Counted from the stretch's first letter, positions 29,167 to 48,025 are shown. The stretch is DNA of 64,000 nucleotides from Patescibacteria group bacterium UBA6220 (GCA_002421745.1 DISC01000006.1:87610-151609), one strand, 5' to 3'. The notes: generated from the sequence alone by a model not told the origin. Made by a program: numbers and translations.

Positions 29167-29198
29167 CTCATTAAAAACGATTCAAAGCTTATTTTTCT

Positions 29199-30059: not shown

Positions 30060-30088
30060 TTTTTAATAAAATTACTCATAAATATTTA

Positions 30089-30928
30089 TTAATAAATATT
30101 GTCATTTGCCCAGTCCCCTTTTTCGCATTTTTCCCAATCATAAACACTCTCGTTATTTATCAACCACTCGTGGCTACGCTGAATAACAATCCCACCAAAT
30201 ACTTTTTTATTACCTTGATTAACTAAATATTTTTGTAATGATTCGGCTTTAGCTTTTGTATATGTCTTACCATCACGATCTCCAACGTCTTTAACTTCAA
30301 GTAAACCAAGACGCCCATCTGAAAATTTAACCAAATAGTCAGGATAAAAAGTACTTATGCTTCCTGCATATTCATACTTAATGCCAAAATATTCCTGTTT
30401 ATTTTCACTATTCTTCCACCACCAATTTAATTTTGAACTATTTTTGTTCAACAAATCTTCAAATTCTCTTTCTGGTTTAGATCTGTCGATATTTAAATAG
30501 CATGGTTCGTAAACATATTTTTTAGCTTTTACGGTTTCGTCATCATATTCGTTATAAAATTGCTCTGGCTTAATATCAAAAGTATATCTTTGGTCACTCT
30601 CTTCTATACGCTAATGAACCTCTTTTTCTTTAACAATAACATACTGATCAATCGCTTTATTTAGAATATGCCCAAAATGGACTATATTCTTATTATTTAA
30701 AAACATCTTTTGCGTTAAAAGCGAAGGATCTTTCCAATGCTCAGCACCAAGAACTTTATTAAACCAAAGATAAATAGCTGTTTTAACTACTGGAACAGAA
30801 CGCTTAATATTTTTAAATGGTCCAAGGTTGTCTTTAATGAACTGCTCAAAGAAAACAGCTAAGTCATCAACAGCTACATTTAATTTAGCTAAATTATCGG
30901 CATCAATTTTACCTTCTAATTCATCAAA
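30089..30928 (-). pseudogene. 5'-truncated, nonsense-interrupted nuclease gene (PD-(D/E)xK C-terminal domain)
   Basis: The frame is open from 30928 with no start codon. An in-frame TAG lies at 30611-30613 (...KEKEVH*RIEESDQ...). The C-terminal part carries YPDYLVKFSDGRLGLLEVKD. Confidence 0.6.
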
Positions 30929-32745: not shown

Positions 32746-32748
32746 AAA

Positions 32749-34737: not shown

Positions 34738-34825
34738 ATTTACAGAATAGCATAATTTTGTAATTTATGTAAATTTACTAGAAGGGTTAATAAGTAATAA
34801 ATTCTGGTCGAAATGTATTAACAAA

Positions 34826-34856
34826 AGAGACCGGCCCCTGACGGGAACCGGTCTCT
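34826..34856 (-). terminator. Strong GC hairpin plus TTTGTT; probably the original tRNA-Asn terminator
   Basis: 9-bp stem agagaccgg/ccggtctct. It lies just 3' (minus sense) of the displaced tRNA-Asn 3' fragment. Confidence 0.55.
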
Positions 34857-34894
34857 TAGAATCCCTCACTATTTGACTCCGGTGGTAGGATTCG
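34837..34894 (-). repeat. Displaced copy of the tRNA-Asn 3' end plus 3' flank (direct repeat DR2, distal copy)
   Basis: Aligns to 47488-47546 with about 6 mismatches and 1 indel. Includes tgactccggtggtaggattcg versus tggctccggtggtaggattcg in the tRNA. Confidence 0.75.
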
Positions 34895-34951
34895 CCTCCA
34901 TCTGCTGGTGCAGATGAAAACCTCCGCCCCTCATCGGGGATGCGGCCCGCG
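34895..34951. other. 57-nt GC-rich structured insert inside the displaced tRNA T-loop
   Basis: Flanked by duplicated ATTCG (34890-34894 and 34952-34956). Hairpins catctgc-tggt-gcagatg and ccgc..ccc-tcatc-ggg..gcgg. Far more GC-rich than the surroundings. Confidence 0.5.
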
Positions 34952-34971
34952 ATTCGAATCCTACTTCTTTC

Positions 34972-35009
34972 ACAGAAACAAAACAAAAGACACCCACTTT
35001 GAGGTGTCT
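34972..35009 (-). terminator. Rho-independent terminator (minus strand)
   Basis: Stem agacacc/ggtgtct followed on the minus strand by ttttgttttgttt. It lies directly 3' (minus sense) of DR1b. Confidence 0.6.
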
Positions 35010-35015
35010 ATTCGT

Positions 35016-35117
35016 TTTGGCTCCCGTGTACGGTCTGGTGCCCCACATAGGCAATAACCGTAAGGGTTAATTGAGTTATGTTTCTAGTATACCACACAGG
35101 TAACCGGTCGGGTAGCT
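35016..35117. repeat. ~102-bp direct repeat DR1, copy b
   Basis: See 29065-29166. Confidence 0.85.
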
Positions 35118-35219
35118 TTAAGAAAAATGAGACAAATTAGACACCATAAAAAGGAAATGTCTCGTGTCTCAAAATAATAAGAATGAGGAAAAACATATAC
35201 ACATAAAGCAAAAAGTTAA

Positions 35220-35921
35220 TTAATCTATAATTAATTCTTCCTTTTCAATATCTTTCTTTAATAGATTTATCCCCTTCCAGGCTATTGGATGACATCTTTT
35301 TATATGATCTTTTTCTTTGCAAAAGCAAGGCGTATGCCCCTTAATGTACGACTTTCTCTGTAATGCATTTTTAATGTACGGCCAAACAGTCTTATCGTGC
35401 TTTAATTTTGCTATACACTCCCCAGCTTTCTTGCTGTTATAAAATTTAGCGTAAGACTCTAGAATACCCACAATGCCATGCGCATATTCATCCCACGGCC
35501 ATGCGTTTTTGAGAGAAAAAAATTCTTGCCCATATAGAAAAGGAATAACTAGTCGTTGGAAAAAATCTACAAACTTAAATCCTGGTTTTAGAAACTCTTC
35601 CTCCTCAAGGGGATTACAAAGACACGCCGTTTTGTCGGATTGATTAATATGGCGATCGGGTATTGTATCTATGTTTTTCACGCAAAGCGCCGGAAGTTCC
35701 GAAAATGACTTATCGATTCTTTCCTTTATAATAATTTCGAATCTGCCATTTAGTATCGTGCCTCCAATTGTATTACTCGTTCCGCCTTCAATAATCAAAA
35801 ATTCGTTAGTCTTATCATTATAGGCGGCTGTAAATTCTAAAGTTCCGGAAACTACACCGTGGTCTTCTTTCAGTCCCGGATACTTTTGAGCCAACCATTC
35901 TTTATCCTGATTAGTCAACAT
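35220..35921 (-). CDS. Cys-rich protein with SEC-C-type zinc motif and a possible UBC/E2-like core
   Basis: ATG at 35921, 1 nt after the MBL gene stop. C-terminal CFCKEKDHIKRCH fits C-x-C-x8-C-H (SEC-C pattern). ELPALCVKNIDTIPDRHINQSDKTACLC resembles the E2 signature P..P.v.f....HPN....G.iCL. Confidence 0.55.
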   Translation of the reverse strand: MLTNQDKEWLAQKYPGLKEDHGVVSGTLEFTAAYNDKTNEFLIIEGGTSNTIGGTILNGRFEIIIKERIDKSFSELPALCVKNIDTIPDRHINQSDKTACLCNPLEEEEFLKPGFKFVDFFQRLVIPFLYGQEFFSLKNAWPWDEYAHGIVGILESYAKFYNSKKAGECIAKLKHDKTVWPYIKNALQRKSYIKGHTPCFCKEKDHIKRCHPIAWKGINLLKKDIEKEELIID

Positions 35922-35922
35922 A

Positions 35923-36960
35923 CTACAATGAACACCAAGGCGATTTGGGAGAAAAAGGCTTCGGCGAAGAGAACCCCTCATTTCTCAGAGATGACGTCTT
36001 AGCTGATTTATCATCCTTATCACCATTATAAATCTTTAAACTGCCACCGGCGTCGATATCGACAATAATGCTTTTTTCATCTTCTCCTAAATGGTAGGTA
36101 TTTTCTTTGCTGACGTAATCTTCATATAGCTCCAACGCCTCATCATCCGGATGGTCATGTGGGCTATCTTCTTGCTTTGGAGCGCTTATTATCAAATAAT
36201 CTGGCTTTATATTATCCATGTGATCGAGATAAACATCGTCGTCTTCCTTTTCTTTATCCTTGAAGAAAGAAACTGATCCATGGTGGGACGCGCTCAAAAC
36301 ATCGCTCTTCAAATCATCTTTATAATAATCAGTTATGTGCTCCTTCCATGCTGCTTTGTCAGAATCTCCAGTTAGAAGTATGCTTTTGTCTTTATAGATA
36401 AATTTAATAACTCCGCATTGTTCGTGTATTCTTTTAGCTCTTTGGTCGGGTGTTTCGTCATCTATCTCTTCACAGACATATTTCGCTGGCGACAATACTT
36501 GAAAATCAATATCGCCGATTTTTCTATCGGTCTTAGATTTCTCCTCTTTGTCAGTATGTAGAACATTCTTATCATTACTGCCTCTCAAATAAAAAACATT
36601 AGAATCGCCGACTTTCTTAATAACCTCATTCAATTCCTTAAATGCGTCCTCATGCTCTTTTCCTGGTGTGTGTCCAGAATGCCAAACCTCACTAATACAA
36701 TCTTTGATTTCCTTGACCCCGGCAATGTGGTCTTTGTGGGGGTGGGTATTAACAAAAATAATGTCGTCTCTATCTATTTCTTTGAAAATCAAAGGAATAT
36801 CCTCGATCAATTCGTCATCTTTCTTATAGTTAGAATCGACTAGTAAATACCTGTGTGAATCTCCATCGGGAACAATCATCAAGGTAGACTCACCCTGACC
36901 AACATACAAGAATATTGTCCTGAAAATTCCCTTATCTGGGAAGAATATATCTTTTTCCAT
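35923..36960 (-). CDS. Stand-alone ComEC-like metallo-beta-lactamase-fold hydrolase
   Basis: VGQGESTLMIVP, THPHKDHIAG (HxHxDH) and SASHHGS motifs, as in the ComEC C-terminal MBL domain. Confidence 0.75.
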   Translation of the reverse strand: MEKDIFFPDKGIFRTIFLYVGQGESTLMIVPDGDSHRYLLVDSNYKKDDELIEDIPLIFKEIDRDDIIFVNTHPHKDHIAGVKEIKDCISEVWHSGHTPGKEHEDAFKELNEVIKKVGDSNVFYLRGSNDKNVLHTDKEEKSKTDRKIGDIDFQVLSPAKYVCEEIDDETPDQRAKRIHEQCGVIKFIYKDKSILLTGDSDKAAWKEHITDYYKDDLKSDVLSASHHGSVSFFKDKEKEDDDVYLDHMDNIKPDYLIISAPKQEDSPHDHPDDEALELYEDYVSKENTYHLGEDEKSIIVDIDAGGSLKIYNGDKDDKSAKTSSLRNEGFSSPKPFSPKSPWCSL

Positions 36961-36961
36961 A

Positions 36962-37555
36962 TTATTTGTTAGTTATGTTTAATAAAAAAGTCTGCAAAGT
37001 TTTACCTCTCGAATAATTGTAAAACCTTTTTGATCTATTATAAAAAAGCCAAGTTAAGATAACGGATAAAATAAACAATGAAAGGTAACTAAAAGAAAAC
37101 CAATGAATAATACTGAGAATTAACATGGAAATAGAATTTAATCCGAACACTATCATCCACCCCCTATACAGACTGTAGTAAGCGTTGAAAGACTGAACCT
37201 GACCGGTAATGTCTTTCGCAGAAGAAGACATATAACACAGAGAGTAAACTTCTCCCCAGGTCTGTTTTGTCACATTAAAATAAGCACTAGCTCTCTCGAG
37301 AATCTCTTTTTCCGAATCGGAAAAATTAACTTTATTCTCTTTTACAAAAATATTTGAAATAGCTTGCAAAACATGACCAAATAAGTAGGCAACGATAACC
37401 CACAATAAAGAATTATCTAGATTGAAAAAGGGAATTATGTAAATTACTCCGAATAAATAGAAGCTTAAAGATAAAACCATTAAACCAACGCTTCCAACCA
37501 TTAGATATCCTATCTGGTCATAAATATTAAATTTTGAAAAAATTGTATTATCCAT
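36962..37555 (-). CDS. 4-TM membrane protein (2 TM + ~70 aa loop + 2 TM)
   Basis: 197 aa with hydrophobic pairs at both ends. Only 1-2 nt gaps to the flanking genes. Confidence 0.55.
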   Translation of the reverse strand: MDNTIFSKFNIYDQIGYLMVGSVGLMVLSLSFYLFGVIYIIPFFNLDNSLLWVIVAYLFGHVLQAISNIFVKENKVNFSDSEKEILERASAYFNVTKQTWGEVYSLCYMSSSAKDITGQVQSFNAYYSLYRGWMIVFGLNSISMLILSIIHWFSFSYLSLFILSVILTWLFYNRSKRFYNYSRGKTLQTFLLNITNK

Positions 37556-37557
37556 AA

Positions 37558-37797
37558 TTAGTATTTTGTATCTTTAACTGATTTTGGATCATTGCCAGGT
37601 TTAACAGTGTCACTATCTCTAATCGGACCATCGGGCCTATGAATTCTTACCTCTCCGCCACCGCTATTAGCAGACATTTCTTTTGCTGCTTTTTCTGCTT
37701 CCGCTTGGGTATTATAATACCCAGCAACGCGCTCTGCCCCCTCCTTCTTTGCGAACCAATCGCCTTCTTTATTTTTCATAACGTGATAATTTGCCAT
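37558..37797 (-). CDS. DUF2188-like small protein
   Basis: MANYHVMKNKEGDWFAKKEGAERVAGYYNTQAEAEKAAKEM pattern. Confidence 0.6.
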   Translation of the reverse strand: MANYHVMKNKEGDWFAKKEGAERVAGYYNTQAEAEKAAKEMSANSGGGEVRIHRPDGPIRDSDTVKPGNDPKSVKDTKY

Positions 37798-37803
37798 ATG
37801 TTT

Positions 37804-38433
37804 TTACTTTAATTTATTTTTAATAATATCTTTGACTATTCCACAAAATATTACCTCATCTTGCCCCATTAAATAAATGGGCTTGTGGATTGGATTCGAG
37901 GAGCTTGGATCTAAATAATAAAGCCCCTCGCTTGTCCGCCTAAAATACTTAACGGTCGCTTCGCTGCCAATTAGAACTACGGCCTTTTCTCCGATATTAG
38001 GCATGGAATTCTGTTTTTTAATTAATAGTAAATCTGAATCATTTATGCCGGCTTTATCCATGCTATCTCCTCTAGCTCTCAAAAAGAAATAGTCCTGCGT
38101 ACCACCAGTTAAATTACCGGCCATATACGGTATATATCCCTGAATATCTTCAACCGCTATATTAGGACTTCCGCAAGCAACCTCCCCAATTAAGGGAATA
38201 CTAAATATCTTCCTAGCAACATCTTTGAAAAATGCTGATAACTTCAATCCTGCTCCTTTTTCTTGTGAAAGGTACCCTTTCTTTTTTAAGGCATTAACAT
38301 GGACCTGGATAGAGCTGGTGGTCTTATATCCCAAACGTTCCCTGACTTCCTCATAAGTTGGTATTTTGCTCGTTTTAGCGTATATATCCTTAATAACGTT
38401 CAAAACTTCCTTTTGTTTACTTGTAATATCCAT
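37804..38433 (-). CDS. LexA/CI-like S24 autopeptidase repressor
   Basis: N-terminal wHTH. Linker IPLIGEVACGSP. Catalytic RGDSM Ser and downstream Lys (EATVKYF). 209 aa. Confidence 0.8.
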   Translation of the reverse strand: MDITSKQKEVLNVIKDIYAKTSKIPTYEEVRERLGYKTTSSIQVHVNALKKKGYLSQEKGAGLKLSAFFKDVARKIFSIPLIGEVACGSPNIAVEDIQGYIPYMAGNLTGGTQDYFFLRARGDSMDKAGINDSDLLLIKKQNSMPNIGEKAVVLIGSEATVKYFRRTSEGLYYLDPSSSNPIHKPIYLMGQDEVIFCGIVKDIIKNKLK

Positions 38434-38472
38434 GGTTTTTTGATATGATATGTATAATCTTTACTTTATTAG

Positions 38473-38501
38473 AGTATACACGAAAACTTATTATCCGTCA
38501 A
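38473..38501 (-). promoter_or_regulatory. Sigma-70-type promoter for the repressor operon
   Basis: Minus-strand TTGACG (38501-38496), exact 17-nt spacer, TATACT (38478-38473). Palindrome TACTTTATTAGAGTA (38462-38476) overlaps the -10. A plus-strand TATAAT lies at 38453-38458. Confidence 0.55.
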
Positions 38502-38519
38502 GCCCTAAATTGACTTCAT

Positions 38520-39344
38520 ATGAAAAAGACGAGAACAATCTACGATTCGGACTATTATAGAATGCAGCTTTTAATCCAAAGCCATGATTTTGTGAATAGA
38601 ACAGAAAAGATGATGAATAATTTTAAAAAAATTGGATATCCCCTGCCACGAGGAGGTTTTAATACTTATAAGGAGTATCTGGATTGGAACGAAAAATACT
38701 TTTTAAAAAGGCAAGAAATTGCAAATAGTAAAGAATTAAGTGATAAAATTGAAAAAATAAAAAATGGCGAAGAGACGGTGGGCCCAGAAAAGTATTACCA
38801 AATAGAAGCATTGAGGAAAAAACACATTCCGCCACTAATCGAAGAATATATTAGCGACATTTTAAATAATGCCGGCATCAATAGAAAAAGTAAAAAATAC
38901 GAATCTTATCAAAGGTTTTTAATATTTAATATATTTTTAAATAAGGAGAAATTTAGCAACCCTCCTTTGATTATTAAGAGGATTAGAAACAAAGATACTG
39001 ATACGCTGGACCTCTTTATTCAAATACTCCCATATACCAGGAAAGAAGATATAGTTAATGCATGGCCATTTATCAAGCAACACCAAAAATTACTGTCTGA
39101 ATATAAAGAAAGAATTAAAGAATATAAAAAATTCCAAAGAGATCTAGACATTTATAACATCTATCAGAAGTTTAAAAACGAGCCCCGGATAGCCTTACAA
39201 AATTCGGCAGACAACAGGATAGATAGCAGGACATGGAATAAAATAAAGGATAAATACGGAGATTTAAGCTGGGAGAATATAAGAAAAATCGTTAGCAATA
39301 TAGAAAACCTCATAAAAAATGTGACTGATAGAGAGTCTTACTAA
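38520..39344 (+). CDS. Hypothetical protein (first gene of the divergent phage-like operon)
   Basis: 274 aa ORF with no recognised motif. Confidence 0.5.
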   Translation: MKKTRTIYDSDYYRMQLLIQSHDFVNRTEKMMNNFKKIGYPLPRGGFNTYKEYLDWNEKYFLKRQEIANSKELSDKIEKIKNGEETVGPEKYYQIEALRKKHIPPLIEEYISDILNNAGINRKSKKYESYQRFLIFNIFLNKEKFSNPPLIIKRIRNKDTDTLDLFIQILPYTRKEDIVNAWPFIKQHQKLLSEYKERIKEYKKFQRDLDIYNIYQKFKNEPRIALQNSADNRIDSRTWNKIKDKYGDLSWENIRKIVSNIENLIKNVTDRESY

Positions 39345-39413
39345 AATACGCGAAGATATTTTAAAGGCATTATAAACTGTAAATATAATAATTACAGTTT
39401 TTATTTTAATAAC

Positions 39414-40748
39414 ATGAAACAAAATATAAAAATAGTAAAAGTTTCTATTGATAAGCTTCGCGCGTCTTCATATAATCCTCGCAGGCTTACCACAGAGCAA
39501 GAAAAACATCTAACTGAAAGCATTGTTCGCTTCGGATTGGTAGACCCAATTATAGTCAATAAACATCCAGGCCGAGAATTTATTGTGATCGGAGGGCATA
39601 TGCGCCTAAGAATAGCTAAAAAGCTCGGCTACAAGGAAGCCCCTGTCGTTTTCCTAGATTTAATAGAAAGCAAAGAGCGAGAACTAAATATCAGATTAAA
39701 TTCTAATTTGGGAGAGTTTGATTTTAATCTTCTTAAGAATTTTGGAGAAGAATTTTTAGCTGATATTGGTTTCTCAAGCGAATCACTTGATCAGATATTT
39801 GAAATAGAAAACACACCAGAGGAATTTAATCTTGAAAAAGAATTAAAGAAGCTTGATATCAAAAATATAGAAGTCAGAAAAGGAGACGTTTATCAGCTTG
39901 GCGACTCAAAATTAAAATGTGGCGATTCAACTATCGAAGAAGATATCATAGATTTAATGGGTGGCGAGAAAGCAAATATGTGTTTTACTGATCCGCCTTA
40001 TATATTAGATTATCTCCACGGCAAGAGCAGGAATGGCAAAGCAACCGAAGGATTCGGTTTAAAGAAAAATAGAAAATATCTTGAAACTGACTTTATTCCA
40101 GATAATTTCTCTGATTTATGGATGGCAAATATTGCCAAAGTGCAAAAGCCTGATTTCTCTATTATTATATTCGAACATCCTAAAAATCTTCGAACCATAT
40201 GGAATGCTCTTGAAAAACATTGGAGATATAGAAATACCATAACATGGCATGTTCCTAATAGAGTTCAAGGATTTTCAGCTAAGTATAAATTTTTTAATAA
40301 GGCGGATATAGCGCTGGTCGGAAGCTCTGGCAACATAAAATTAAACATAGCCCCAGAACCAAACGAATTATTCCAGAATGAATACGAAAATGCAATTTAT
40401 GCCACATCCGGCAAGCCACATTGGGAAGGTTACGAAAAAGGGAAGAAGATGTGCCCTACCGATTTTATAGAGCATATCGCTGCTGATGAAAAATCTTCGG
40501 GGCAAGGCATTATTTTCGGAACAAAACCCCTCGAGCTTCTTATCCCTTATATCAAAGTACTAACTAAGCGAAATGACTTAATCATTGAGCCATTTGGCGG
40601 ATCGGGGTCGACACTAATAGCGGCCACTAAAATGAAGCGCCGTTGTTACATTATGGAGAAATCGCCAGTCTACGCTGAAGTCATCATGAAGCGATGGGAG
40701 AAATTAACAGGATTAAATAGAAAAAAGCATGAAAAACGACAAAAATAA
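39414..40748 (+). CDS. ParB-like nuclease domain fused to an N6/N4 DNA methyltransferase
   Basis: N-terminus NPRRLT...IIVNK...VIGGHMRLRIAKKLG (ParB/Srx). MTase motif IV FTDPPY and motif I EPFGGSGST. Confidence 0.8.
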   Translation: MKQNIKIVKVSIDKLRASSYNPRRLTTEQEKHLTESIVRFGLVDPIIVNKHPGREFIVIGGHMRLRIAKKLGYKEAPVVFLDLIESKERELNIRLNSNLGEFDFNLLKNFGEEFLADIGFSSESLDQIFEIENTPEEFNLEKELKKLDIKNIEVRKGDVYQLGDSKLKCGDSTIEEDIIDLMGGEKANMCFTDPPYILDYLHGKSRNGKATEGFGLKKNRKYLETDFIPDNFSDLWMANIAKVQKPDFSIIIFEHPKNLRTIWNALEKHWRYRNTITWHVPNRVQGFSAKYKFFNKADIALVGSSGNIKLNIAPEPNELFQNEYENAIYATSGKPHWEGYEKGKKMCPTDFIEHIAADEKSSGQGIIFGTKPLELLIPYIKVLTKRNDLIIEPFGGSGSTLIAATKMKRRCYIMEKSPVYAEVIMKRWEKLTGLNRKKHEKRQK

Positions 40749-41148
40749 ACAATCTCTTTTAAATCAATTAAAGGAAACTCCGATTATTAATTTTGCTTGC
40801 AAGAAAACAGGAATCGGGCGAGCAACATATTACCATTGGCGCGAAGATAAAGAATTCGCAAAAATTGCCGATGAAGCAATAATAGAAGGAGAAGCTTTTA
40901 TTACTGACATGAGCGAATCTCAATTAATTTCTATGATTCGCGATCGTAACTTTCAAGCCATTCAGCTCTGGCTTAGACATCATCATGCTAAATATAGCCA
41001 AAAGATAGAAATAACGGCTAACGTTTCTCAACAAGATGAATTAACCCCAGAACAAGAATCAGTAGTTCGAGAAGCTCTACGCCTAGCATCATTAATTCCT
41101 AGCGATAAAACAGACGATAATGACCCAAACAAACTACCAACAAATTAG
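40729..41148 (+). CDS. Terminase small-subunit-like HTH protein
   Basis: HTH ACKKTGIGRATYYHWRED. Overlaps both the upstream methylase gene and the downstream TerL gene. Confidence 0.5.
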   Translation: MKNDKNKQSLLNQLKETPIINFACKKTGIGRATYYHWREDKEFAKIADEAIIEGEAFITDMSESQLISMIRDRNFQAIQLWLRHHHAKYSQKIEITANVSQQDELTPEQESVVREALRLASLIPSDKTDDNDPNKLPTN

Positions 41149-42589
41149 TAAAGGATACGATTGCAATCACCTGCCGAAAGAATTAGTCGATCGGATGATC
41201 AAAGATCGCAAAGTTAGGGTTGCCGTTTGCAAGCAAAGCTTCTTCATATTTTTTCATTTCTATTTCGCACATTATGTAACCTATGAAACAGCTTCGTTCC
41301 ATCGCGAGATATTTCATCTTATAGAAAACAATAATGAAAATCTTTTTGTAATTGCTTTTCGAGGATCGGGAAAATCAACAATTCTTACAACCGCCTACCC
41401 TATCTGGGCAATACTAGGCAATCAGCAAAAAAAGTTTGTGCTTATTCTTTGTCAGACACGAAGCCAAGCAAAGCAACACATGATGAACTTAAGGCGAGAA
41501 CTTGAAGATAACGAACTTCTTAAAGATGACCTTGGGCCCTTTCAAGAGGAAAACGATGAGTGGGGATCTTCATCTCTTGTTTTTTCAAAATTAAACGTAC
41601 GTATTACCACCGCTTCTACAGAACAAAGTATTAGGGGGTTAAGGCATAATCAATACCGTCCAGACCTCATAATTGGCGACGATGTTGAGGACATTGCCTC
41701 CACCAAAACAAAAGATAGTAGGCAGAAAACGTACCAATGGCTTACAGGAGAAGTGATTCCTGCTGGGGATAAAAATACCAGACTTACTATAGTCGGAAAC
41801 CTTCTCCATGAAGACTCTCTTCTTATGCATTTAAAACAAGATGTAAATGATGGCAAAATCAATGGCTTGTTTAAGGCATATCCACTACTTGATGAAACTG
41901 GCGCAATTGCGTGGCCTGGAAAATATCCAACAGAAAACGATATCGAGAATGAGAAGAAAAGAGCTGGAAATGAAATTGCGTGGCAAAGAGAATATCTCCT
42001 TAGAATTGTTTCAGATGCGGGAAGAGTTGTCCATCCGGAATGGATTCATTATTATGACCCTGAAAAAGATATACCCAGCGACGAATATTTTTCAGAAACC
42101 TACATTGGCGTTGATTTAGCCATATCAGAAAAAGATAGCGCAGATCGCACCGCTATGGTTGTAATTAAAATTTATCAGACAGGAGACAAATGTATCGCCT
42201 ATGTTTTACCTTTCCCCTTTAACAAAAATGTAGGTTTTCCAGATCAAGTAAGGCAAATTAAAAATCTAATAAAAACTTACCGATACTCTAAAATATTTGT
42301 CGAAAAGGTCGCCTATCAAGAGTCAATTATCCAGCACTGCCAAAGCTTAGGAATCGAAGTTGAAGGAATTCCTCCGCGCGGAGAGAAGCGCGAGAGGATT
42401 GCACTCACTACTGCAGCGATAAAAGCTGGAATCATTAGGTTTCCCCGAAAAGGAGCCGAAGAACTTATTACTCAGCTTACTGATTTCGGCGTGGAAAGAT
42501 ACGATGATCTCGCGGACGCTTTTTCTCTTGTAGTAAACCAATTTATCATATATTCCAATGAGCCCACCCCTAGCGCTGAATGGCTCTAA
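41120..42589 (+). CDS. Phage terminase large subunit
   Basis: Walker A AFRGSGKST, Walker B-like LIIGDDVED, and a C-terminal RNase-H-like nuclease half (IGVDLA...DDLADAF). Confidence 0.75.
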   Translation: MTQTNYQQISKGYDCNHLPKELVDRMIKDRKVRVAVCKQSFFIFFHFYFAHYVTYETASFHREIFHLIENNNENLFVIAFRGSGKSTILTTAYPIWAILGNQQKKFVLILCQTRSQAKQHMMNLRRELEDNELLKDDLGPFQEENDEWGSSSLVFSKLNVRITTASTEQSIRGLRHNQYRPDLIIGDDVEDIASTKTKDSRQKTYQWLTGEVIPAGDKNTRLTIVGNLLHEDSLLMHLKQDVNDGKINGLFKAYPLLDETGAIAWPGKYPTENDIENEKKRAGNEIAWQREYLLRIVSDAGRVVHPEWIHYYDPEKDIPSDEYFSETYIGVDLAISEKDSADRTAMVVIKIYQTGDKCIAYVLPFPFNKNVGFPDQVRQIKNLIKTYRYSKIFVEKVAYQESIIQHCQSLGIEVEGIPPRGEKRERIALTTAAIKAGIIRFPRKGAEELITQLTDFGVERYDDLADAFSLVVNQFIIYSNEPTPSAEWL

Positions 42590-42594
42590 CTTTA

Positions 42595-44046
42595 TTACTG
42601 ACGCGTAAGAGTAATATTAACTACTGGTTGTGTATTATTAGCTCCTGGAGTGTCCGTGACAACCTCTACCCCATCTGCCCCTATATATCTTGCGTAATTA
42701 TTCGTAAGCTGGAAAGTTATTCCCTCAGCAGGAATATTATTAGGGCTTCCGAAATCAAGCTCTACGGTTTGCAATCTGCTACTATATGCATCGACTTTTC
42801 CGCCAATATCTTTGGTTATTGTATTGTTGTTTGCATTTTTAATGATGGATGAGGCGTTTGGTGAAATTGTAAATCTTGCCTCTTCTGGCTCAATATCATT
42901 CTCGAGTGCGGAAACTTTAAATCTTACTAGCATGGCTTGGCCATCGCTACTTACTTTTTGTTCTATAGAAGAAGGCCCGTCCACAGAAATCATTAAAATA
43001 CCTGGAGTTTTAATGTATACTGATTTTTCTGTTTGTACGCCATTCGCAATGCATTTTAACTTAAATGTAATTGGCGAGCTAATAACGACGTCCTTATTTC
43101 CGTCGGAGGCGACGACTTGGTCATTCGCTGTGCATTGTAATGCTTCTCCAGTTGCAACTGTAGCCGTCCAAGCTAATTTTACAGTGCTGTTAGGCTTTAC
43201 TATAAAAGAATCTACCTCATTACCGTTAGTTTTAATAGAGATTGCTGGAATTGCGGATACAACTTTCACAGCGGTTGTTTTACTCATCGAAGATCCGTCG
43301 GTTGATCCGCATATAAGAGTATATGAATAATCTCCCGCTTTCGTATATTGAAGCTTTTCTGATCCGTTTGCATTTTTAACTCCACTCCAATTTCCTGAGG
43401 CTACGCAGTTTGTAATATTTTGCGAATGCCATGATAGGTTTGCATACGTAGGACCGTTAAGTACTACTGTTGGCACTTGGTCGAAATAAAGACTGGCAGA
43501 GGAGGTAGCACTTGTTGCTGGTGTATCCACTGTTTCAGAAGTTGAGGATTGGGTTGTTTGCTGTGGCTGTTGAGTATTTTGAGTTTGCTGTTGGATTACT
43601 GACTGTGATTGCTGGCTATTTTGTTTTTGGCTGTTTAATAGTTTTTGTAATAAAGCTATTAAATTTTCCCTAGAAATATCACCGGTTGTCGATGATGTTG
43701 TAGCTATCGGAGTAGTTGTTCCAGTTTCGGTAGTAGCCTGTTGATTAGAAGATTGTAGATTTTTAGCTAAAATATCGTTAACTTTTTGCCTTGAAAGACT
43801 TCCAAAGTAGCCTGTTGATGGCAAGCTATTTGCAGTTTGAAACTTTTTAACAGCTGACAATGTAAGAGAATAATAATTACCAGTAGCTTCTCCAGTTAAA
43901 TATCCCTGATCAATTAGGAATTCTTGTAATTCCTTAACCTGTGAATCGTTTTGTAAACCATAGGAAAGATTTTTATCTATAGAGGCACTTACAAACATAA
44001 TGGGTGCAAGCAAGAATAACGATAAGATAATATTTATTTTTTTCAT
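42595..44046 (-). CDS. Secreted peptidoglycan-binding-domain protein with Q-rich linker and Ig-like repeats
   Basis: Signal peptide from the ATG at 44046 (MKKINIILSLFLLAPIMFVSA). PG_binding_1-like VKELQEFLIDQGYL...AVKKFQ. Confidence 0.65.
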   Translation of the reverse strand: MKKINIILSLFLLAPIMFVSASIDKNLSYGLQNDSQVKELQEFLIDQGYLTGEATGNYYSLTLSAVKKFQTANSLPSTGYFGSLSRQKVNDILAKNLQSSNQQATTETGTTTPIATTSSTTGDISRENLIALLQKLLNSQKQNSQQSQSVIQQQTQNTQQPQQTTQSSTSETVDTPATSATSSASLYFDQVPTVVLNGPTYANLSWHSQNITNCVASGNWSGVKNANGSEKLQYTKAGDYSYTLICGSTDGSSMSKTTAVKVVSAIPAISIKTNGNEVDSFIVKPNSTVKLAWTATVATGEALQCTANDQVVASDGNKDVVISSPITFKLKCIANGVQTEKSVYIKTPGILMISVDGPSSIEQKVSSDGQAMLVRFKVSALENDIEPEEARFTISPNASSIIKNANNNTITKDIGGKVDAYSSRLQTVELDFGSPNNIPAEGITFQLTNNYARYIGADGVEVVTDTPGANNTQPVVNITLTRQ

Positions 44047-44388
44047 ATTTTTAAAATAGTTAATAAATTGACAGATTATGTCGACAAATAATCCTTCCTG
44101 TGGCGTTTTATATACAAAAAGCCCACCACAGGTAGTGACCGAAGCCACTCATACCGGTTTCCCGATATGGCGATCAAGCGACCCCATGATGGGTTCTTTA
44201 TTCTTGATCGACTTTTGACCATGCCCTTGAAATTCAAAGGTTTAGGCCTGCTATTAAATTGTGATTACATAATAGCTCAAAAGCTAAAAATTGTGTAGTC
44301 TTTCAGTCTCCAGTTTGTCTACATCTAGGGTCTGGACTTCCTTGCCATATTGCGACATCTGTATAGGTAAGAGAATAAAAGACAAAAT

Positions 44389-45663
44389 ATGACAGACACA
44401 AAGTACTGCCTTTATGCAAGGAAATCAACAGAATCAGATGAAACCCAGGCTCTTTCCATCGATTCTCAAATCAAGGAAATGCTAGAATTGGCGAAAAGAG
44501 ACAACCTTAATGTAATCGAAATAAAACAAGAAAAGCACTCGGCCAAAGAAGTAGGCCAAAGGCCGGTTTTTAATGAGGTCATCAAAGAGATAAGAGAGGA
44601 AAAGTTTAATGGAATTTTAACATGGGCGCCAGATAGAATAGCCAGAAATGCTGGAGACTTGGGAACGGTCGTAGATATGATGGACAACGGAAAGCTGAAA
44701 GAAATACGAACCTACGGACAATCTTTCGGCAATTCCCCTAACGATAAGTTCCTATTAATGATCCTCGGATCCCAAGCCAAGCTGGAAAATGACAATAAGT
44801 CGGTAAACGTCAAAAGAGGCATGAAAGCCAAGTGTGCCATGGGATGGCGTCCTGGAATGGCACCTCTGGGGTATTTAACGAACAGAGAGGGCATTAAGGG
44901 CCAAAGAAAGATATTTATAGACACGGTCAGGTCTCCCATAATCAAGCAAATGTTCGAAAAAACGGCTTTCGAGAAATACAGCGGAAGGAAGCTGTATAAT
45001 TGGCTGATATCAATCAATTTCGCAACCAGAACCGGAAAGAGAGTGACATTAAGTTCAGTGTACACCATATTGAAGAACAGCTTCTATTATGGAAAGTTCG
45101 AATACCCTGTCGGAAGCGGATCGTGGTATGACGGCCTGCATGAACCGATAATTACCAAAGATTTATTCGATAAAGTCCAAGAGCAAATAACAAGCCAGAA
45201 TGCCAGATGCGAAGACAAGGAATTCGCCTTCACTAGATTGATGAAATGCGGATTATGCGGATCAGGAATAACCGGAGAAGAGAAGCATAGAAAGCTCAAG
45301 AATGGGTCATTCAATGTACACGTCTATTATGGGTGCACCAGATACAACGACACCTATTGCAAGTGCGGATACATAAGAGAGGAGGATTTGATTGAGCAGC
45401 TTTCCGGAATGATGGACGAGCTCATCATGGACGGATCGGAGGTAAAGCAAAAAATAGAATGTGAAATTAAAAGATACAAGAAATTCAGGTACGGCGTCCT
45501 AGGACTGAAAGAATCTAATGAAAAAATAGAAGAAACTCTGGATCACAAAAAGTACGCTCGATATATCCTATCGCAAGGAACAATCGAAGAAAAAAGGGAG
45601 TTGATATCCTTCCTTAAGGGAAAGATATTTATAGCAAACGGGAAAGTCTCTATTGGCGATTGA
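44389..45663 (+). CDS. Large serine recombinase
   Basis: N-terminal resolvase catalytic region YARKSTESDETQALSIDSQ and DRIARN. Recombinase domain. Zn-ribbon CGLCGSG...YYGC. Confidence 0.85.
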   Translation: MTDTKYCLYARKSTESDETQALSIDSQIKEMLELAKRDNLNVIEIKQEKHSAKEVGQRPVFNEVIKEIREEKFNGILTWAPDRIARNAGDLGTVVDMMDNGKLKEIRTYGQSFGNSPNDKFLLMILGSQAKLENDNKSVNVKRGMKAKCAMGWRPGMAPLGYLTNREGIKGQRKIFIDTVRSPIIKQMFEKTAFEKYSGRKLYNWLISINFATRTGKRVTLSSVYTILKNSFYYGKFEYPVGSGSWYDGLHEPIITKDLFDKVQEQITSQNARCEDKEFAFTRLMKCGLCGSGITGEEKHRKLKNGSFNVHVYYGCTRYNDTYCKCGYIREEDLIEQLSGMMDELIMDGSEVKQKIECEIKRYKKFRYGVLGLKESNEKIEETLDHKKYARYILSQGTIEEKRELISFLKGKIFIANGKVSIGD

Positions 45664-45664
45664 A

Positions 45665-47272
45665 TTATAAGTCTATATGTTCTATCGGAGTTGCGGTGTA
45701 CCCAACGACTTCGTCCGCTTCTGCAAAACTTTTAGATCCAGTAGCGATAACCCCAACAACCTCATTTTTGTTATTAAGCAACGGACTCCCACTCATCCCT
45801 CCTGTAAAAGGCTTATCTAATACAATTCTGGGAAGATAAAATCTTTCTTTGAAAGAAACTACTTTTGTTTCATAGAAAAAAGGTTCTTTGTTCGAATACA
45901 ATAAAGGAAATCCTATACCCAACAAAGAATCTCTTTTATTTACTTGATTATTGCTTTTTTTAAATTCCGGGAATCTAATACCTTCTTCAAATTGTAGAAT
46001 AGCTAAATCAATGCCAAATCTATTCCTTAAAAGATGGAGAGGGTATTTTTTACTAGGATTTTTTGGTCTATATGCAATAATTTTACCACCAATTCCAATA
46101 ACATGAGAACATGTTATCATTCCATATCCCTCCAATAAAAACCCCGTTCCCTGTTCCCAATCATTTACCTCTATAATCCAAATATATTCTTCTAAGGTTT
46201 TATTTTCATTAAGCTCAAGTTCGGGGAAACCATTTTTTGCTATGCTATTATATTTATTAATTAATTTCTTATAAATATTGTCTCTACTTCCTCTTACCAT
46301 TCTTACGAAATTAATTTTTCCTAATATTACCTGCTCAAAATTCCCGTCCGTTTTGTATGGACTTTTATCTTTATTTTTTCTACATAAAAAATACTCTGAT
46401 TTAGATTTTTCGATCCCATAATGCTCCCAATTATATAACATAACTCTAATCTCTCTAATATAATCCCTTTTGATGTTCGGAAATTTATTAGTAGTTAGTC
46501 CAGTAACTTCTTGTCTCGCTGAAGGAAACGACATCCTCGTCTTTGCTCTATTGATCGAAAACCAATTAGAAGCAATAATTGCTTCTAAGTCTTTTCCCAG
46601 AATAATACTTGATCTCTCTACGGTGGCAATATTTTTAGGAAAATTACCGTTCCAGCTAGAAAAAGTTATATCATCAGCATATCGCGTGTAAAGAATGTTA
46701 TTTTTGTTAGCTAGTTTTTGCATTTGTCCATCCAATCTAGAACAAATCAAGTTAGAAATAATTGGAGATGTCGGCGCTCCTTGAGGTAACTCATTGTTTA
46801 GCGTACAAATTTGTGCTAAAACTGCTGCAACTTTTTTAGGCAAACTAAATGGCTCAGAAGTGAAAAGTCCCATAACTCTAGGAAAAGTTATCGATGGAAA
46901 AAAATTTTCTAAATCAAAATTAAGAACAACCTTTTTACCACAATGAACAGCGGCATTTGTCACAATGCTTTTATCCTTACAAAATCCATGTACCGACGGT
47001 CTTAATCTGGATCCATAAACTAAACTTAAAACCACTGATAATTTTTGCTGTATAATTTTTAAAGAAGTAATTGGGGTGCGTATAGTCCTGGTACCTCCTG
47101 ATTTCTTTTTTATTTCAAAAGATTTATAATTTAATTCTATCTTTTTACCATAAATCAAATAAAGCAAAGTCTTTTTATTAACATCTAGTAGCTCACAAAA
47201 AGCATCAATATTATTGAGTTTTAAAAATTTATCCAATAATTGACTAGCGTTAAATTTTAATTCTTTATCCAT
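45665..47272 (-). CDS. Retron-type reverse transcriptase fused to a C-terminal trypsin-like serine protease
   Basis: KKSGGTRTIRTP, NAAVH, LNFDLENFFPSI, LPQGAPTSPIISN, YADD, NRAKT, VTGLTT. Then protease His (TCSHVIG), Asp (DLAIL) and Ser (GGMSGSPLLN). ATG at 47272 with an AAGGA RBS is preferred over the TTG at 47314. Confidence 0.8.
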   Translation of the reverse strand: MDKELKFNASQLLDKFLKLNNIDAFCELLDVNKKTLLYLIYGKKIELNYKSFEIKKKSGGTRTIRTPITSLKIIQQKLSVVLSLVYGSRLRPSVHGFCKDKSIVTNAAVHCGKKVVLNFDLENFFPSITFPRVMGLFTSEPFSLPKKVAAVLAQICTLNNELPQGAPTSPIISNLICSRLDGQMQKLANKNNILYTRYADDITFSSWNGNFPKNIATVERSSIILGKDLEAIIASNWFSINRAKTRMSFPSARQEVTGLTTNKFPNIKRDYIREIRVMLYNWEHYGIEKSKSEYFLCRKNKDKSPYKTDGNFEQVILGKINFVRMVRGSRDNIYKKLINKYNSIAKNGFPELELNENKTLEEYIWIIEVNDWEQGTGFLLEGYGMITCSHVIGIGGKIIAYRPKNPSKKYPLHLLRNRFGIDLAILQFEEGIRFPEFKKSNNQVNKRDSLLGIGFPLLYSNKEPFFYETKVVSFKERFYLPRIVLDKPFTGGMSGSPLLNNKNEVVGVIATGSKSFAEADEVVGYTATPIEHIDL

Positions 47273-47282
47273 ATTTTCCTTA

Positions 47283-47423
47283 AAAAGAGAGCCCGCAGAG
47301 TTCTCCCTTTGCAAAAGCGGTCATACTATTACAACACGGTAATAACATGAAGGGGCACTAAAGTAAACCGTTTACTATTCTATTGCGAAACACAATAGCA
47401 ATCAAATCGCAGAGCTCTCTTTT
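47283..47423 (-). ncRNA. Candidate retron msr/msd non-coding RNA
   Basis: 10-bp inverted repeat AAAAGAGAGC (47423-47414, minus sense) / GCTCTCTTTT (47292-47283) encloses about 120 nt with three hairpins (47380-47398, 47363-47375, 47327-47344). It lies immediately upstream of the RT start. Confidence 0.4.
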
Positions 47424-47487
47424 AAAAGAAAATTTGTCTTTATACTACCCCTAAAAATATAATAAATCAAACTAAACAAAACCGCCT

Positions 47488-47546
47488 ACCTGACGGTAAC
47501 CGGTCTCTCAGAACCCCTCACTGGTTGGCTCCGGTGGTAGGATTCG
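47488..47546 (-). repeat. Direct repeat DR2, proximal copy (tRNA-Asn 3' end plus 38-nt flank)
   Basis: Aligns with 34837-34894. Confidence 0.75.
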
Positions 47547-47600
47547 AACCTACAACCTAATGCTTAACAGGCATCCGCGCTACCATTGCGCCACACCGGA
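47526..47600 (-). tRNA. tRNA-Asn (anticodon GTT), CCA encoded
   Basis: Manual cloverleaf fold: acceptor TCCGGTG/CACCGGA; D stem GCGC/GCGC; anticodon stem GATGC/GCATT with loop CTGTTAA; T arm GTAGG-TTCGAAT-CCTAC; discriminator G then CCA. 75 nt. Confidence 0.9.
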
Positions 47601-47845
47601 ATATGTTGTTTTAAAAATTGTCGCCCTCTATACGTTTTAAGTTGTTTTTCTCTAATCAGCGCCTCTTTTCGATCCCTAACGTCTTCTTTATGTACCAACT
47701 CCCAAGCACCATCAAATCGAGCAGTATAACCACCTTTGAATTCTTTGCTGTTATGAAGCATTAATCTTTTGTCTATATCGCTCGTTTGACCAATATAGAT
47801 CTTATTATTTTTACGATTATAAATTGCGTAAACATAGTAATTCAT
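47564..47845 (-). CDS. GIY-YIG nuclease-family small protein
   Basis: YYVYAIYNRKNNKIYIGQTSDIDKRLMLHN with a downstream R...E core. Its last 12 codons and stop codon overlap the 5' half of tRNA-Asn. Confidence 0.7.
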   Translation of the reverse strand: MNYYVYAIYNRKNNKIYIGQTSDIDKRLMLHNSKEFKGGYTARFDGAWELVHKEDVRDRKEALIREKQLKTYRGRQFLKQHIPVWRNGSADAC

Positions 47846-48025
47846 AAAGCACCGCATACCTTCACTGATTAATAAAGCGCCACTCCGCCAGCTGGCGGAG
47901 GAATATAAAATTTAAAGAACACGATAACAATATTATACACAAAATATAACTTTTTTCAACCTCTTTAAATTTAACCTATTTCACACATTAAAAGCCAGCA
48001 TTTAGATGGCTTTTAATACAGCAGT

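Follow-up and report, generated by a model that had tools for sequence, protein, structure and literature searches.

The window analysed here, a stretch of 64,000 nucleotides, carries an intact tRNA-Asn gene beside a region whose foreign character, proposed in a first-pass annotation, is borne out on each count. Between 35 and 46 kb the G+C content amounts to 0.33-0.40, compared with about 0.30 in flanking DNA, the plus-strand gene blocks of the window are confined to the island in this region, and phage-type genes encode TerS, TerL, a ParB-methylase and a LexA/CI-like repressor. The features are collected in Table 1, where element A denotes the segment adjoining the tRNA and element B a second segment beyond it. 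The repressor is of the S24 type and shares its operon with genes for DUF2188, a 197-aa unknown protein, a metallo-beta-lactamase-like (MBL) protein and an E2-like protein. Searches with Pfam and PHROGs brought up no gene for a portal, capsid or tail protein in element A. TerL lies alongside TerS, which is unusual for a phage satellite. The cargo of element A comprises the E2/MBL operon, the peptidoglycan-binding protein, whose gene has a LOOT RNA motif immediately upstream and divergent from the recombinase gene, and a type XI retron, which combines the expected fusion of reverse transcriptase (RT) and protease with an upstream candidate ncRNA between inverted repeats (47270-47292 and 47414-47436, 87% complementary). 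The retron occupies a slot between the recombinase gene and the tRNA that is filled by other cargo in three relatives (G024, G010 and G021), in which the ParB-methylase, TerS and TerL genes are found again.

The large serine recombinase (LSR) has a Resolvase catalytic domain (PF00239, E 4e-20, residues 8-152) with Recombinase (PF07508, 4e-16, residues 181-268) and Zn_ribbon_recom (PF13408, 6e-9, residues 281-338) domains C-terminal to it. The serine of its YARKS motif aligns with that of YLRRS in SPbeta SprA, the closest solved relative (9dxh, E 3e-12), in an alignment reaching residue 380, and the ORF is full length, matching homologues up to residue 422 of 424. That this is the sole recombinase of the region, as first reported, was upheld by domain searches and by a six-frame search of the genome's assembly (658 kb in 7 contigs, 82% complete), in which its Resolvase domain was the only one; Phage_integrase (PF00589) was detected neither in the island ORFs nor in the six-frame search. 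An Xer-like tyrosine recombinase is present once per genome in 39 of the 40 relatives searched, with very few others. The LSR is 95% identical to its copy in G024, RpoD being 82% identical. As that copy belongs to another genus, recent transfer is implied, and on sequence comparison the LSR has moved between genera.

Table 1. Features of the two proposed elements and of the native DNA around them
Feature	Position	Strand	Source
tRNA-Asn(GTT), intact	47526-47600	-	ARAGORN; Rfam tRNA, 74 bits
Putative attL core of element A, GGAGCCA, last 7 nt of tRNA	47526-47532	-	junction comparisons
Proposed element A, LSR-bearing, 12.5 kb, at tRNA-Asn 3' end	35018-47525		
P' (element-side) arm of element A, with terminator hairpin now serving the tRNA	47474-47525	-	conservation, fold
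Candidate retron ncRNA (msr/msd) between inverted repeats, upstream of RT	47270-47436	-	
Retron type XI RT fused to trypsin-like protease	45665-47314	-	PADLOC RT-Protease_XI, E 2.7e-174; Pfam RVT_1 + Trypsin_2
LSR, 424 aa, proposed integrase of A, convergent with tRNA	44389-45663	+	Pfam
LOOT RNA motif	44134-44248	-	Rfam RF03000, 77.3 bits vs gathering score 46.4
Element backbone and one more cargo gene	38520-44148	.	Pfam, PHROGs
Peptidoglycan-binding protein (cargo)	42595-44148	-	
TerL	41120-42589	+	
TerS-like	40729-41148	+	
ParB-N6 methylase	39414-40748	+	
Unknown ORF	38520-39344	+	
Repressor-led operon	35220-38433	-	Pfam; PADLOC E2, 1e-28
Terminal module of element A	35018-35170	-	recurrence in relatives; fold
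Putative attR core of element A, GGAGCCA	35018-35024	-	
Native tRNA-Asn terminator, now 3' of element A module	34988-35009	-	terminator scan; fold -16.4 kcal/mol
Genus-specific pseudo-T-arm unit (GTAGGATTCGAA, two hairpins, GGCGAATCCTACCACCGGAGTCA)	34874-34960	-	
Proposed element B, restriction-modification system, 5.8 kb, at pseudo-tRNA end	29067-34873		
P' arm of element B, trailer part of distal repeat	34818-34873	-	
Perfect terminator within P' arm of B	34825-34857	-	terminator scan
Cargo of element B	29199-34737	-	Pfam, PADLOC
Fused double DNA methyltransferase (B)	32749-34737	-	
AlwI-type nicking/restriction endonuclease (B)	30916-32745	-	
Two unknown ORFs (B)	30089-30454, 29199-30059	-	
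Second terminal-module copy, far end of B, ending ACGGGAGCCA	29067-29168	-	

At the near end of element A the tRNA passes into a trailer and terminator supplied by the element, the P' arm. Conservation of this arm, at 85-96%, is limited to genomes that share the LSR type (G024, G010, G021 and L081), and in all other relatives similarity to the window ends at the tRNA end. The far end is formed by a terminal module with a palindrome (GAGACACGAGACA at 35158-35170 and TGTCTAATTTGTCTC at 35129-35143), an extended -10-like box (TGTGGTATACT) and a hairpin-forming stretch of ~65 nt that ends in ACGGGAGCCA. This end mimics the tRNA end ACCGGAGCCA, GGAGCCA alone being common to both, and the crossover, placeable no more finely than within these 7 nt, would lie there. 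The same module terminates LSR elements in G024, G010, G021 and G001, and it was not found in the same-genus genomes searched (G002-G005). It folds at -19.2 kcal/mol (z -2.2), with z-scores from +0.4 to -5.8 across module copies, and it may be transcribed as an RNA.

The boundary of element A is drawn from species-level relatives rather than from an isogenic empty-site genome, and nearly all of the compared genomes are metagenome-assembled. For another LSR type, the empty site in G013 reads CACCGGAGCCA followed directly by TATGAAAAAG, and the same site in G019 is filled by a 9.67-kb LSR element with junctions CACCGGAGCCA to GTTAGG and GATGGGGAGCCA to TATGAAAC, which gives a core of 7 nt. For the LSR type of the window, the module that closes an inserted array in G010 ends in ACGGGAGCCA and adjoins ATATGAAAAAGTATCGAGAGACCGG, the family's usual tRNA trailer, found 3' of tRNA-Asn in G013, G015, G022 and G007. 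G022 carries a 1.1-kb module-terminated insert at the site where G016 passes from the tRNA into ACGATTTTTTTATCGAG. Filled and empty sites together place insertion exactly at the tRNA end, in favour of the second of two options that the first-pass annotation had offered for a serine recombinase beside tRNA repeats, namely that its att site lies within the tRNA.

The association extends well beyond this locus. In 9 of 24 family genomes, LSR homologues (26-95% identity) are encoded 0.8-7 kb downstream of rpoD and tRNA-Asn. In a wider set of 80 LSR loci, a convergent downstream tRNA was present at 40 of the 52 that had at least 3 kb downstream, any upstream tRNA occurred at only 4 of 65, and the downstream tRNAs were on the minus strand in 56 cases versus 5 on the plus. 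At least 8 tRNA identities are represented, and LSR homologues in IMG/VR follow the same pattern. Module ends vary with the target tRNA: GGAGCCA for Asn, CAGCCG for Gln (L140), CTGC for Trp (contig 7 of the same genome), CCGCCA plus trailer for Ser (10 loci) and GTACCA for Lys (L088), although the longest common substring between module end and tRNA discriminates weakly, at 5-7 nt for cognate against about 4-5 nt for non-cognate pairs. At the level of sequence, the junction positions and the family-wide link between LSR and tRNA genes are established.

The repeat that first drew attention to the locus is real: 34837-34894 and 47489-47546 form an ungapped alignment with 52 of 58 positions identical (BLAST E about 1e-13), over the last 21 nt of tRNA-Asn and 37 nt of trailer. 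Since the genome has no further copy, the repeat is not a dispersed element, a possibility raised at the outset. It had been read as both ends of one island, with the distal copy as the original tRNA end displaced by integration. A foreign insertion at the tRNA stands, but the repeats do not bound it. In G002 and G004, same-genus genomes that are free of the island, tRNA-Asn, terminator and pseudo-T-arm unit are directly consecutive; in the window a terminator colinear with theirs, and then the unit, come after the module instead of after the tRNA. G001, which lacks element B, runs from module to terminator to pseudo units to host gene. The 144 nt of native DNA at 34874-35017 follow the end of element A and therefore fall inside the island as first drawn. 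The tRNA-like part of the distal copy belongs to the pseudo-T-arm unit, which occurs once each in G000, G002 and G004, twice in G001 and, among the genera searched, nowhere else, and whose consensus fold shows compensatory changes in 12 of 31 pairs. Its 3' end copies the last 21 nt of the tRNA in the window and 14-18 nt in the island-free same-genus genomes. The empty site predicted earlier, with tRNA-Asn running straight into 34836 and below, was found in no relative compared. Of the two terminators, the distal one is perfect as described, but the tRNA-proximal one is hardly degraded, still folding at -19.3 kcal/mol (z -2.5) versus -24.6 (z -3.5).

The distal copy takes its trailer part from elsewhere. 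These 37 nt match only the P' arm found 3' of tRNA-Asn in genomes with this LSR type, and we therefore assign it to a second element, B. The P' arms of A and B are identical at 32 of 37 trailer positions, and the arm of B is unlike the sequence 3' of the pseudo unit in G001, G002 and G004. The genes of element B encode a type IIS restriction-modification system but no recombinase; in the tRNA-Asn loci of relatives its endonuclease has zero matches and its methyltransferase a single weak one (26%). The module copy at its far end is 91% identical to that of A, close enough that the pair could in principle mislead an assembler, and has lost its hairpin (fold z-score +0.4). With no recombinase and a decayed hairpin, element B may be a fossil.

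We consider it probable that the locus holds two neighbouring insertions of one serine-integrase element family, spanning 29.07-47.53 kb with the native 144 nt between them. For the serine integrase of this family, the likely target is formed by the final few bases of the tRNA-Asn gene, and the 3' end of the pseudo-T-arm unit probably served as a second target, now occupied by element B. The repeat would then mark two adjacent insertions of one mobile-island family rather than a single island, as the comparisons give good reason to think, and its arms are best equated with the tRNA end plus the P' arm of A on one side and the pseudo-tRNA end plus the P' arm of B on the other. In the proposed mechanism the LSR, the putative catalyst, would pair attP with attB. 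The attP would consist of module end plus P' arm, an imperfect inverted repeat (CAGACCGTACACGG-GAGCCAA-CCAGTGAGGGGTTCTG), and attB of the tRNA 3' end plus its trailer; strand exchange at a dinucleotide within GGAGCCA would leave the tRNA intact. Element A would have inserted exactly at the tRNA-Asn 3' end, and element B, whose P' arm and terminal module are of the same kind, at the pseudo-tRNA end.

It is possible, if rather unlikely, that this architecture is right and both elements are nevertheless fossils, left by ancestral integration or acquired with flanking DNA, the LSR being intact but idle. The absence of virion genes, the missing recombinase and decayed module of B, and a decayed LSR element at tRNA-Trp on contig 7 would all suit such a history, as would the search for a free attP junction, which gave none in the viral and metagenome contigs covered, the single match being due to chance. 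On the other side stand the full-length ORF with its catalytic serine kept, its near identity to the copy in another genus, and the intact junction arms and module of A, from which we infer that the LSR and its element may still be active. A single 12.6-kb island, with the LSR recombining across the whole 58-nt identity, is improbable. The repeat is genuine, and in the tRNA-Gln (L140) and tRNA-Ser clades 12-65 nt are alike after the tRNA and after the module, so long imperfect flanking repeats do occur in this LSR family; however, the module ends at 35018 and is followed by native terminator and pseudo unit as in the island-free genomes, it terminates elements in four other genomes, a second copy at 29067 closes the restriction-modification segment, and cores from filled and empty pairs measure only 7 nt. 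Least credible, and very improbable, is the other option first offered, that a tyrosine integrase made the repeats in the classical way and was later lost or replaced, leaving the LSR as a passenger: long tRNA-end repeats are the usual signature of tyrosine integrases (PMC11476347) and the genome is only 82% complete, but searches of island and assembly detected no Phage_integrase domain, the relatives have little beyond a single Xer-like copy per genome, phage-type tyrosine integrases being almost absent, native terminator and pseudo-T-arm sit within the supposed island, and the trailer of the repeat is an arm peculiar to LSR elements.

In its Resolvase, Recombinase and zinc-ribbon layout and its catalytic serine, the LSR resembles SPbeta SprA, Listeria A118/LI, phiC31 and Bxb1, and as in phage and ICE large serine integrases its gene lies near one element end and the junction core is short. 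Characterised large serine integrases use protein-coding or intergenic sites (PMC10654092), whereas the target here would be the 3'-terminal nucleotides of a tRNA gene. The enzyme is also small at 424 aa, the bacterial half-site is tRNA sequence, a conserved module carries the element half-site at its end, and a variable cargo slot separates integrase gene and att site.

The locus shares with tyrosine-integrase islands and prophages, P4-like and others, integration at a tRNA 3' end, element-supplied sequence after the tRNA, arrays at one tRNA and defence-related cargo. The enzyme family is unrelated, however, attP and attB are identical over about 7 nt where those systems have tens of nt within the tRNA, and the crossover would fall at the CCA end instead of the anticodon loop or T-loop. 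Unlike a classical tRNA island, the locus shows no tyrosine integrase by the att site, and the true far end of the island is at 35018-35024. In SCCmec, the Ccr LSR, with two subunits, inserts at the 3' end of a conserved protein-coding housekeeping gene, rlmH, with short direct repeats, and tandem composite arrays include units without a recombinase. Insertion at a gene's 3' end, short direct repeats, tandem array and recombinase-less unit are thus common to both, whereas SCCmec involves neither a tRNA nor a terminal module.

The gene content of the window and of G024 fits that of phage satellites, helper-phage-dependent elements of about 10-20 kb with integrase, repressor and packaging genes and no virion genes. 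Prochlorococcus tycheposons carry site-specific integrases, some are terS-carrying and satellite-like, full and partial tRNA genes are drawn at their ends, and 27 of 937 have an LSR in place of a tyrosine recombinase (bioRxiv 10.1101/2020.12.28.424599). They belong to another phylum and, on those figures, LSRs are a minority there and the rule here. A tRNA-end target of the type normally credited to tyrosine integrases would here be used by a serine integrase.

The large serine recombinase (LSR) of the window lies in an element at the very end of tRNA-Asn (element A) and, judged from related loci, this element type ends in a conserved terminal module, not in the 58-nt repeat that the first-pass annotation had taken as the island's border. 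The repeat is real, with 52 of 58 bases identical, although the two copies align without the indel that had been described. Its tRNA-side copy comprises the last 21 nt of the tRNA and 37 nt of trailer, and with only two copies in the whole assembly (658 kb in 7 contigs, 82% complete) it is not a dispersed element. The LSR was borne out as the only recombinase, since a six-frame search of the assembly returned one resolvase domain and no tyrosine-recombinase domain, in agreement with the island's ORFs. The phage-type genes (TerS, TerL and a LexA/CI-like repressor) were likewise found, and the foreign character is matched by a G+C content of 0.33-0.40 over 35-46 kb versus ~0.30 outside. The terminator beside the tRNA had been called degraded, but it still folds well (-19.3 kcal/mol, versus -24.6 kcal/mol for the distal one).

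Features of the tRNA-Asn locus and related loci
Feature	Location	Strand	Details
tRNA-Asn(GTT)	47526-47600	-	ARAGORN; sole tRNA in the window
58-nt repeat, tRNA side	47489-47546
58-nt repeat, distal	34837-34894
Element A	35018-47525		at tRNA-Asn 3′ end
P′ arm of A (putative)	47474-47525
LSR	44389-45663	+	424 aa
Type XI retron region	45665-47436	-	reverse transcriptase-protease fusion (trypsin-like), PADLOC E 2.7e-174; candidate non-coding RNA between inverted repeats
LOOT RNA motif	44134-44248	-	Rfam, 77 bits
Genes downstream of repressor	35220-37797	-	DUF2188; 197-aa ORF; metallo-beta-lactamase-like; E2-like (PADLOC E2, 1e-28)
Terminal module	35018-35170 and 29067-29168		no further match in genome
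Terminator-spacer-unit block	35017-34874
Pseudo-T-arm unit	34874-34960; G001, L161 9357-9540		closing stem reuses tRNA-Asn T-arm sequence
Element B (predicted)	29067-34873		descending: fused methyltransferase; AlwI-type endonuclease; two ORFs without assignment; second module, ending ACGGGAGCCA at 29067
GIY-YIG ORF	47564-47857	-	97 aa
Intron in tRNA-Asn	G002, L053 1532-1766		group I (Rfam RF00028, 89 bits)
Module copies in a row	G010, L159 10500-15100		three
LOOT-homologous stretch	G011, L059 959-1114
Decayed locus, own contig 7	L164 3476-18300		tRNA-Trp first
Adjacent tRNA-Ser genes	IMG/VR contig, L171 15923-16304		two
Module/tRNA end, Asn	window		ACGGGAGCCA; ACCGGAGCCA
Module/tRNA end, Gln	L140		CACAGCCG; CGCAGCCG
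Module/tRNA end, Trp	own contig 7, beside LSR fragment		GTCTGCCA; CCCTGCA
Module/tRNA end, Ser	ten Uhrbacteria-type loci		ACACCGCCA + trailer; CTCCGCCA + trailer
Module/tRNA end, Lys	L088		GTGTACCA; GCGTACCA

The terminal module is about 150 nt long and consists of a palindrome (GAGACA..TGTCTCATTTGTCTC), a TGTGGTATACT box and a hairpin-forming stretch ending in ACGGGAGCCA. It stands at the far end of LSR elements in three relatives (G024, G010 and G021) and was not found in the same-genus genomes G002-G005, three of them 97-98% complete, and it is therefore element DNA and not a host gene. The module that closes the array in G010 reads ACGGGAGCCA/ATATGAAAAAGTATCGAGAGACCGG (slash, junction), and ATATGAAAAAGTATCGAGAGACCGG is the trailer found directly after tRNA-Asn in G013, G015, G022 and G007. 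At the position where G016, of the same genus, reads tRNA/ACGATTTTTTTATCGAG, G022 has a 1.1-kb insert that ends in a module. Downstream of the LSR element in G010 the module occurs in successive copies, suggesting that at least three units are stacked at a single tRNA.

The lower border follows from gene order within the genus. After tRNA-Asn, G002 and G004 have a terminator hairpin, a spacer of ~20 nt and then a unit that we call the pseudo-T-arm. The same block follows the module in the window, not the tRNA, and the order in G001 is module, terminator, pseudo units and the host P-type ATPase gene. By this shared order element A stops at the module, the 144 nt below it being native. These native nucleotides fall inside the island as first drawn (34837-47600), which argues against the repeats as its borders. 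Nor does the distal copy appear to be a displaced tRNA end, as its 21-mer belongs to the pseudo-T-arm unit, which is present in the island-free G002 and G004; the empty site then predicted, tRNA-Asn followed by restriction-modification genes, was seen in no relative. The unit itself (GTAGGATTCGAA..two hairpins..GGCGAA(T/C)TCCTACCACC) is genus-specific, with a 3′ end that copies the last 14-18 nt of tRNA-Asn in G002 and G004. There is one copy per genome, except for a tandem pair in G001, and in all three genomes that have the tRNA on the same contig the unit sits at the tRNA-Asn locus. Its consensus fold shows compensatory changes in 12 of 31 pairs, and it may be either what is left of an earlier integration or an RNA with a function. 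No Rfam family matches either this unit or the terminal module.

How then did the 58-nt repeat arise? Conservation of the 52 nt that follow the tRNA is confined to genomes with the window's LSR type; in all other relatives similarity stops at the tRNA end. We read these 52 nt as the element-side (P′) arm of A. The sequence after the window's pseudo-T-arm (AATAGTGAGGGATTCTAAGAGACCGG..) agrees with this arm at 32 of 37 positions and is unlike what lies 3′ of the unit in G001, G002 and G004. It would open a second element (B), mobile or not, which lacks a recombinase and sits at the pseudo-tRNA end. Each repeat arm would thus be composed of a tRNA-type 21-mer, the bacterial half-site, and a P′ arm. 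In sequence this arm is also similar to the trailer that is usual for the tRNA in this family (GAGAGACCGGTTACCGTCA versus GAGAGACCGATTACGGTCA), and the element apparently brings along its own diverged version of the trailer, including a terminator for the tRNA.

Forty relatives were searched (G001-G040), the compared genomes being nearly all metagenome-assembled. In the window and in those relatives whose loci were fetched, rpoD lies directly upstream of tRNA-Asn. Of 24 family genomes, 9 carry an LSR homologue that is convergent with the tRNA and lies 0.8-7 kb downstream of rpoD. The window type (86-95% identity) is found in G024, G010 and G021 and distant types (26-40% identity) in G019, G008, G011, G006, G012 and G016. 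A homologue search gave no LSR match in the same-genus G001 and G003-G005, and in G002 matches only elsewhere in the genome, none at tRNA-Asn. LSR homologues in public genomes assign the window to the Patescibacteria, order Minisyncoccales, the closest copies belonging to a Minisyncoccales MAG and to ‘Ca. Microsyncoccus archaeolyticus’. The LSR of G024, a different genus, is 95% identical to that of the window as against only 82% for RpoD, and the element has therefore moved between genera.

The window's tRNA-Asn has no intron; that of eight relatives (G002, G013, G011, G019, G021, G015, G007 and G016) is interrupted after position 34 by ~230-270 nt of inserted sequence, a group I intron in G002. 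The window's GIY-YIG ORF overlaps the 5′ half of tRNA-Asn by 37 nt and is kept in G003 and G009 at 72% identity.

Filled and empty sites place the junction at the extreme end of the tRNA. The empty site of G013 reads ..CCTACCACCGGAGCCA/TATGAAAAAGTATCGAGAG, and G019, of the same genus, carries a 9.67-kb LSR element at precisely this position, with junctions ..CACCGGAGCCA/GTTAGGACAG and ..ACGATGGGGAGCCA/TATGAAAC and a common core of 7 nt, which looks like the footprint of a serine integrase and not of a tyrosine integrase. When module end and P′ arm are joined, the reconstructed attP reads CAGACCGTACACGG-GAGCCAA-CCAGTGAGGGGTTCTG, its outer blocks an imperfect inverted repeat as read from the sequence and its centre within the GCC of the tRNA discriminator and CCA. 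Excision of element A would leave the circle junction ..ACGGGAGCCA/ACCAGTGAGGGG. The island-free genomes end their tRNA-Asn in GGAGCAA (G002) and GGAGCAT (G004), with CCA not encoded, and every tRNA-Asn with an LSR element behind it encodes GGAGCCA. The pattern is compatible with a crossover at GC or ahead of it, both this position and any current activity being predictions. No free attP junction (pattern ACGGGAGCCAANNAGTGAGGG) was present in the viral contigs; the sole metagenome match to the pattern was an unrelated chance match. A search of element A for an internal, inverted spare attP likewise found none.

The puzzle of tRNA-end repeats beside a serine recombinase had raised the idea of a lost or replaced integrase. 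Tyrosine recombinases do occur in 39 of the 40 relatives, nearly always exactly one, extra copies being rare, and this single protein (~320 aa, conserved) is Xer-like in appearance; the window's own assembly shows none, probably because it is incomplete. With one Xer-like copy per relative and few extras, loss or replacement of an integrase is therefore unlikely. The window's protein has the defining domains of a large serine recombinase, and LSRs are the probable integrases in this lineage.

The association of LSRs with tRNA genes extends across the phylum. We collected 80 loci with LSR homologues of 54-95% identity and oriented them with the LSR on the plus strand. Among loci with 3 kb or more of downstream sequence, 40 of 52 have a minus-strand tRNA within 10 kb on that side, and among those with 3 kb or more upstream, only 4 of 65 have any tRNA there; downstream tRNAs number 56 on the minus versus 5 on the plus strand. 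The nearest tRNA is mostly Gln or Ser, followed by Glu, Asn and Trp; Lys, Arg, Ala, Gly and Asp occur once each, and the shortest LSR-tRNA gaps are 84-95 nt. LSR homologues in IMG/VR have this layout too. Wherever palindrome and module are recognisable, the module end tracks the end of the target tRNA. The longest common substring between the two (5-7 nt for cognate, ~4-5 nt for non-cognate pairs) discriminates weakly because the cores are so short. Most of the 80 loci have no long tRNA-end repeat upstream of the LSR (at least 14 of 20 matches), a level that shuffled queries reached in 3-32% of trials; the scarcity fits short cores but proves little. Contig 7 of the window's own genome holds a second, decayed locus of like design, with an N-terminal LSR fragment (74% identity over 47 aa) 3.4 kb downstream of tRNA-Trp and palindrome-plus-module units at ~14.7 and ~18.2 kb whose ends resemble the tRNA-Trp end. 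On an IMG/VR contig with an LSR homologue, one of two adjacent tRNA-Ser genes shows an unusual anticodon, ACT, and is perhaps a degenerate copy or one that came from an element.

Between the repeats lie a LexA/CI-like repressor operon, genes for a ParB-methylase, TerS, TerL, a peptidoglycan-binding protein and the LSR, and a type XI retron, which occupies the cargo slot between LSR and tRNA. The G024 copy retains repressor, ParB-methylase, TerS, TerL and LSR. Its equivalent cargo slots hold a type IIG restriction-modification enzyme, a superinfection-immunity protein and a far-end protease, and its retron slot a 664-aa protein without assignment. Portal, capsid and tail genes were absent from every copy examined. 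The elements resemble defence islands of a satellite-like or gutted-prophage kind, with a putative dependence on a helper phage. Downstream of the repressor, the genes from DUF2188 to that for the E2-like protein may be an undescribed defence-type system. The LOOT RNA motif lies between the LSR and peptidoglycan-binding genes, and a homologous stretch is found near a different LSR type in G011.

The module is conserved, bears a promoter-like box, forms a hairpin in most copies and varies at its end with the tRNA. We considered that it might be transcribed to a small RNA that imitates the target tRNA's acceptor end at its own 3′ end and aids the element's biology, and we think this very improbable. 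Such an RNA, its 3′ end changing with the target (Asn, Gln, Trp, Ser, Lys), might choose or protect the target site or control direction, beyond the module's part as the protein-binding half of attP. RNAalifold gave no consensus fold for the module, a hand-drawn structure had 78.5% of cells paired with covariation no better than shuffles, and single-sequence folds were mixed (z +0.4 to -5.8); an RNA role is therefore not claimed. A promoter scan did not flag the TGTGGTATACT box, and the -35 is weak.

Tyrosine integrases usually use tRNA genes and serine integrases, which work without host factors, short coding or intergenic sites. Against this rule, a whole Patescibacteria-wide clade of serine integrases appears to target the last few bases of tRNA genes, and tyrosine integrases are almost missing from these very small genomes. 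Island finders that rely on long tRNA-end repeats will misplace borders, as happened here. Stacked in arrays, with retrons, restriction-modification systems and further defence-like cargo occupying fixed slots, the elements probably provide these bacteria with a main route for exchanging defence genes. For engineering, a natural set of LSRs retargeted among many tRNA ends, with matching attP, offers a ready series for studies of site choice. Our literature search turned up no publication on LSRs of Patescibacteria that target tRNA genes. Attachment sites (attB) in tRNA genes belong mainly to tyrosine integrases (PMC11476347), and in mycobacteria it is tyrosine integrases whose attB sites overlap tRNA genes (PMC10654092). 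Unlike classical tRNA islands, the element described here has no tyrosine integrase and no repeat marking a displaced tRNA end. Its nearest precedent is the tycheposons, of which 27 of 937 elements carry an LSR (bioRxiv 10.1101/2020.12.28.424599).
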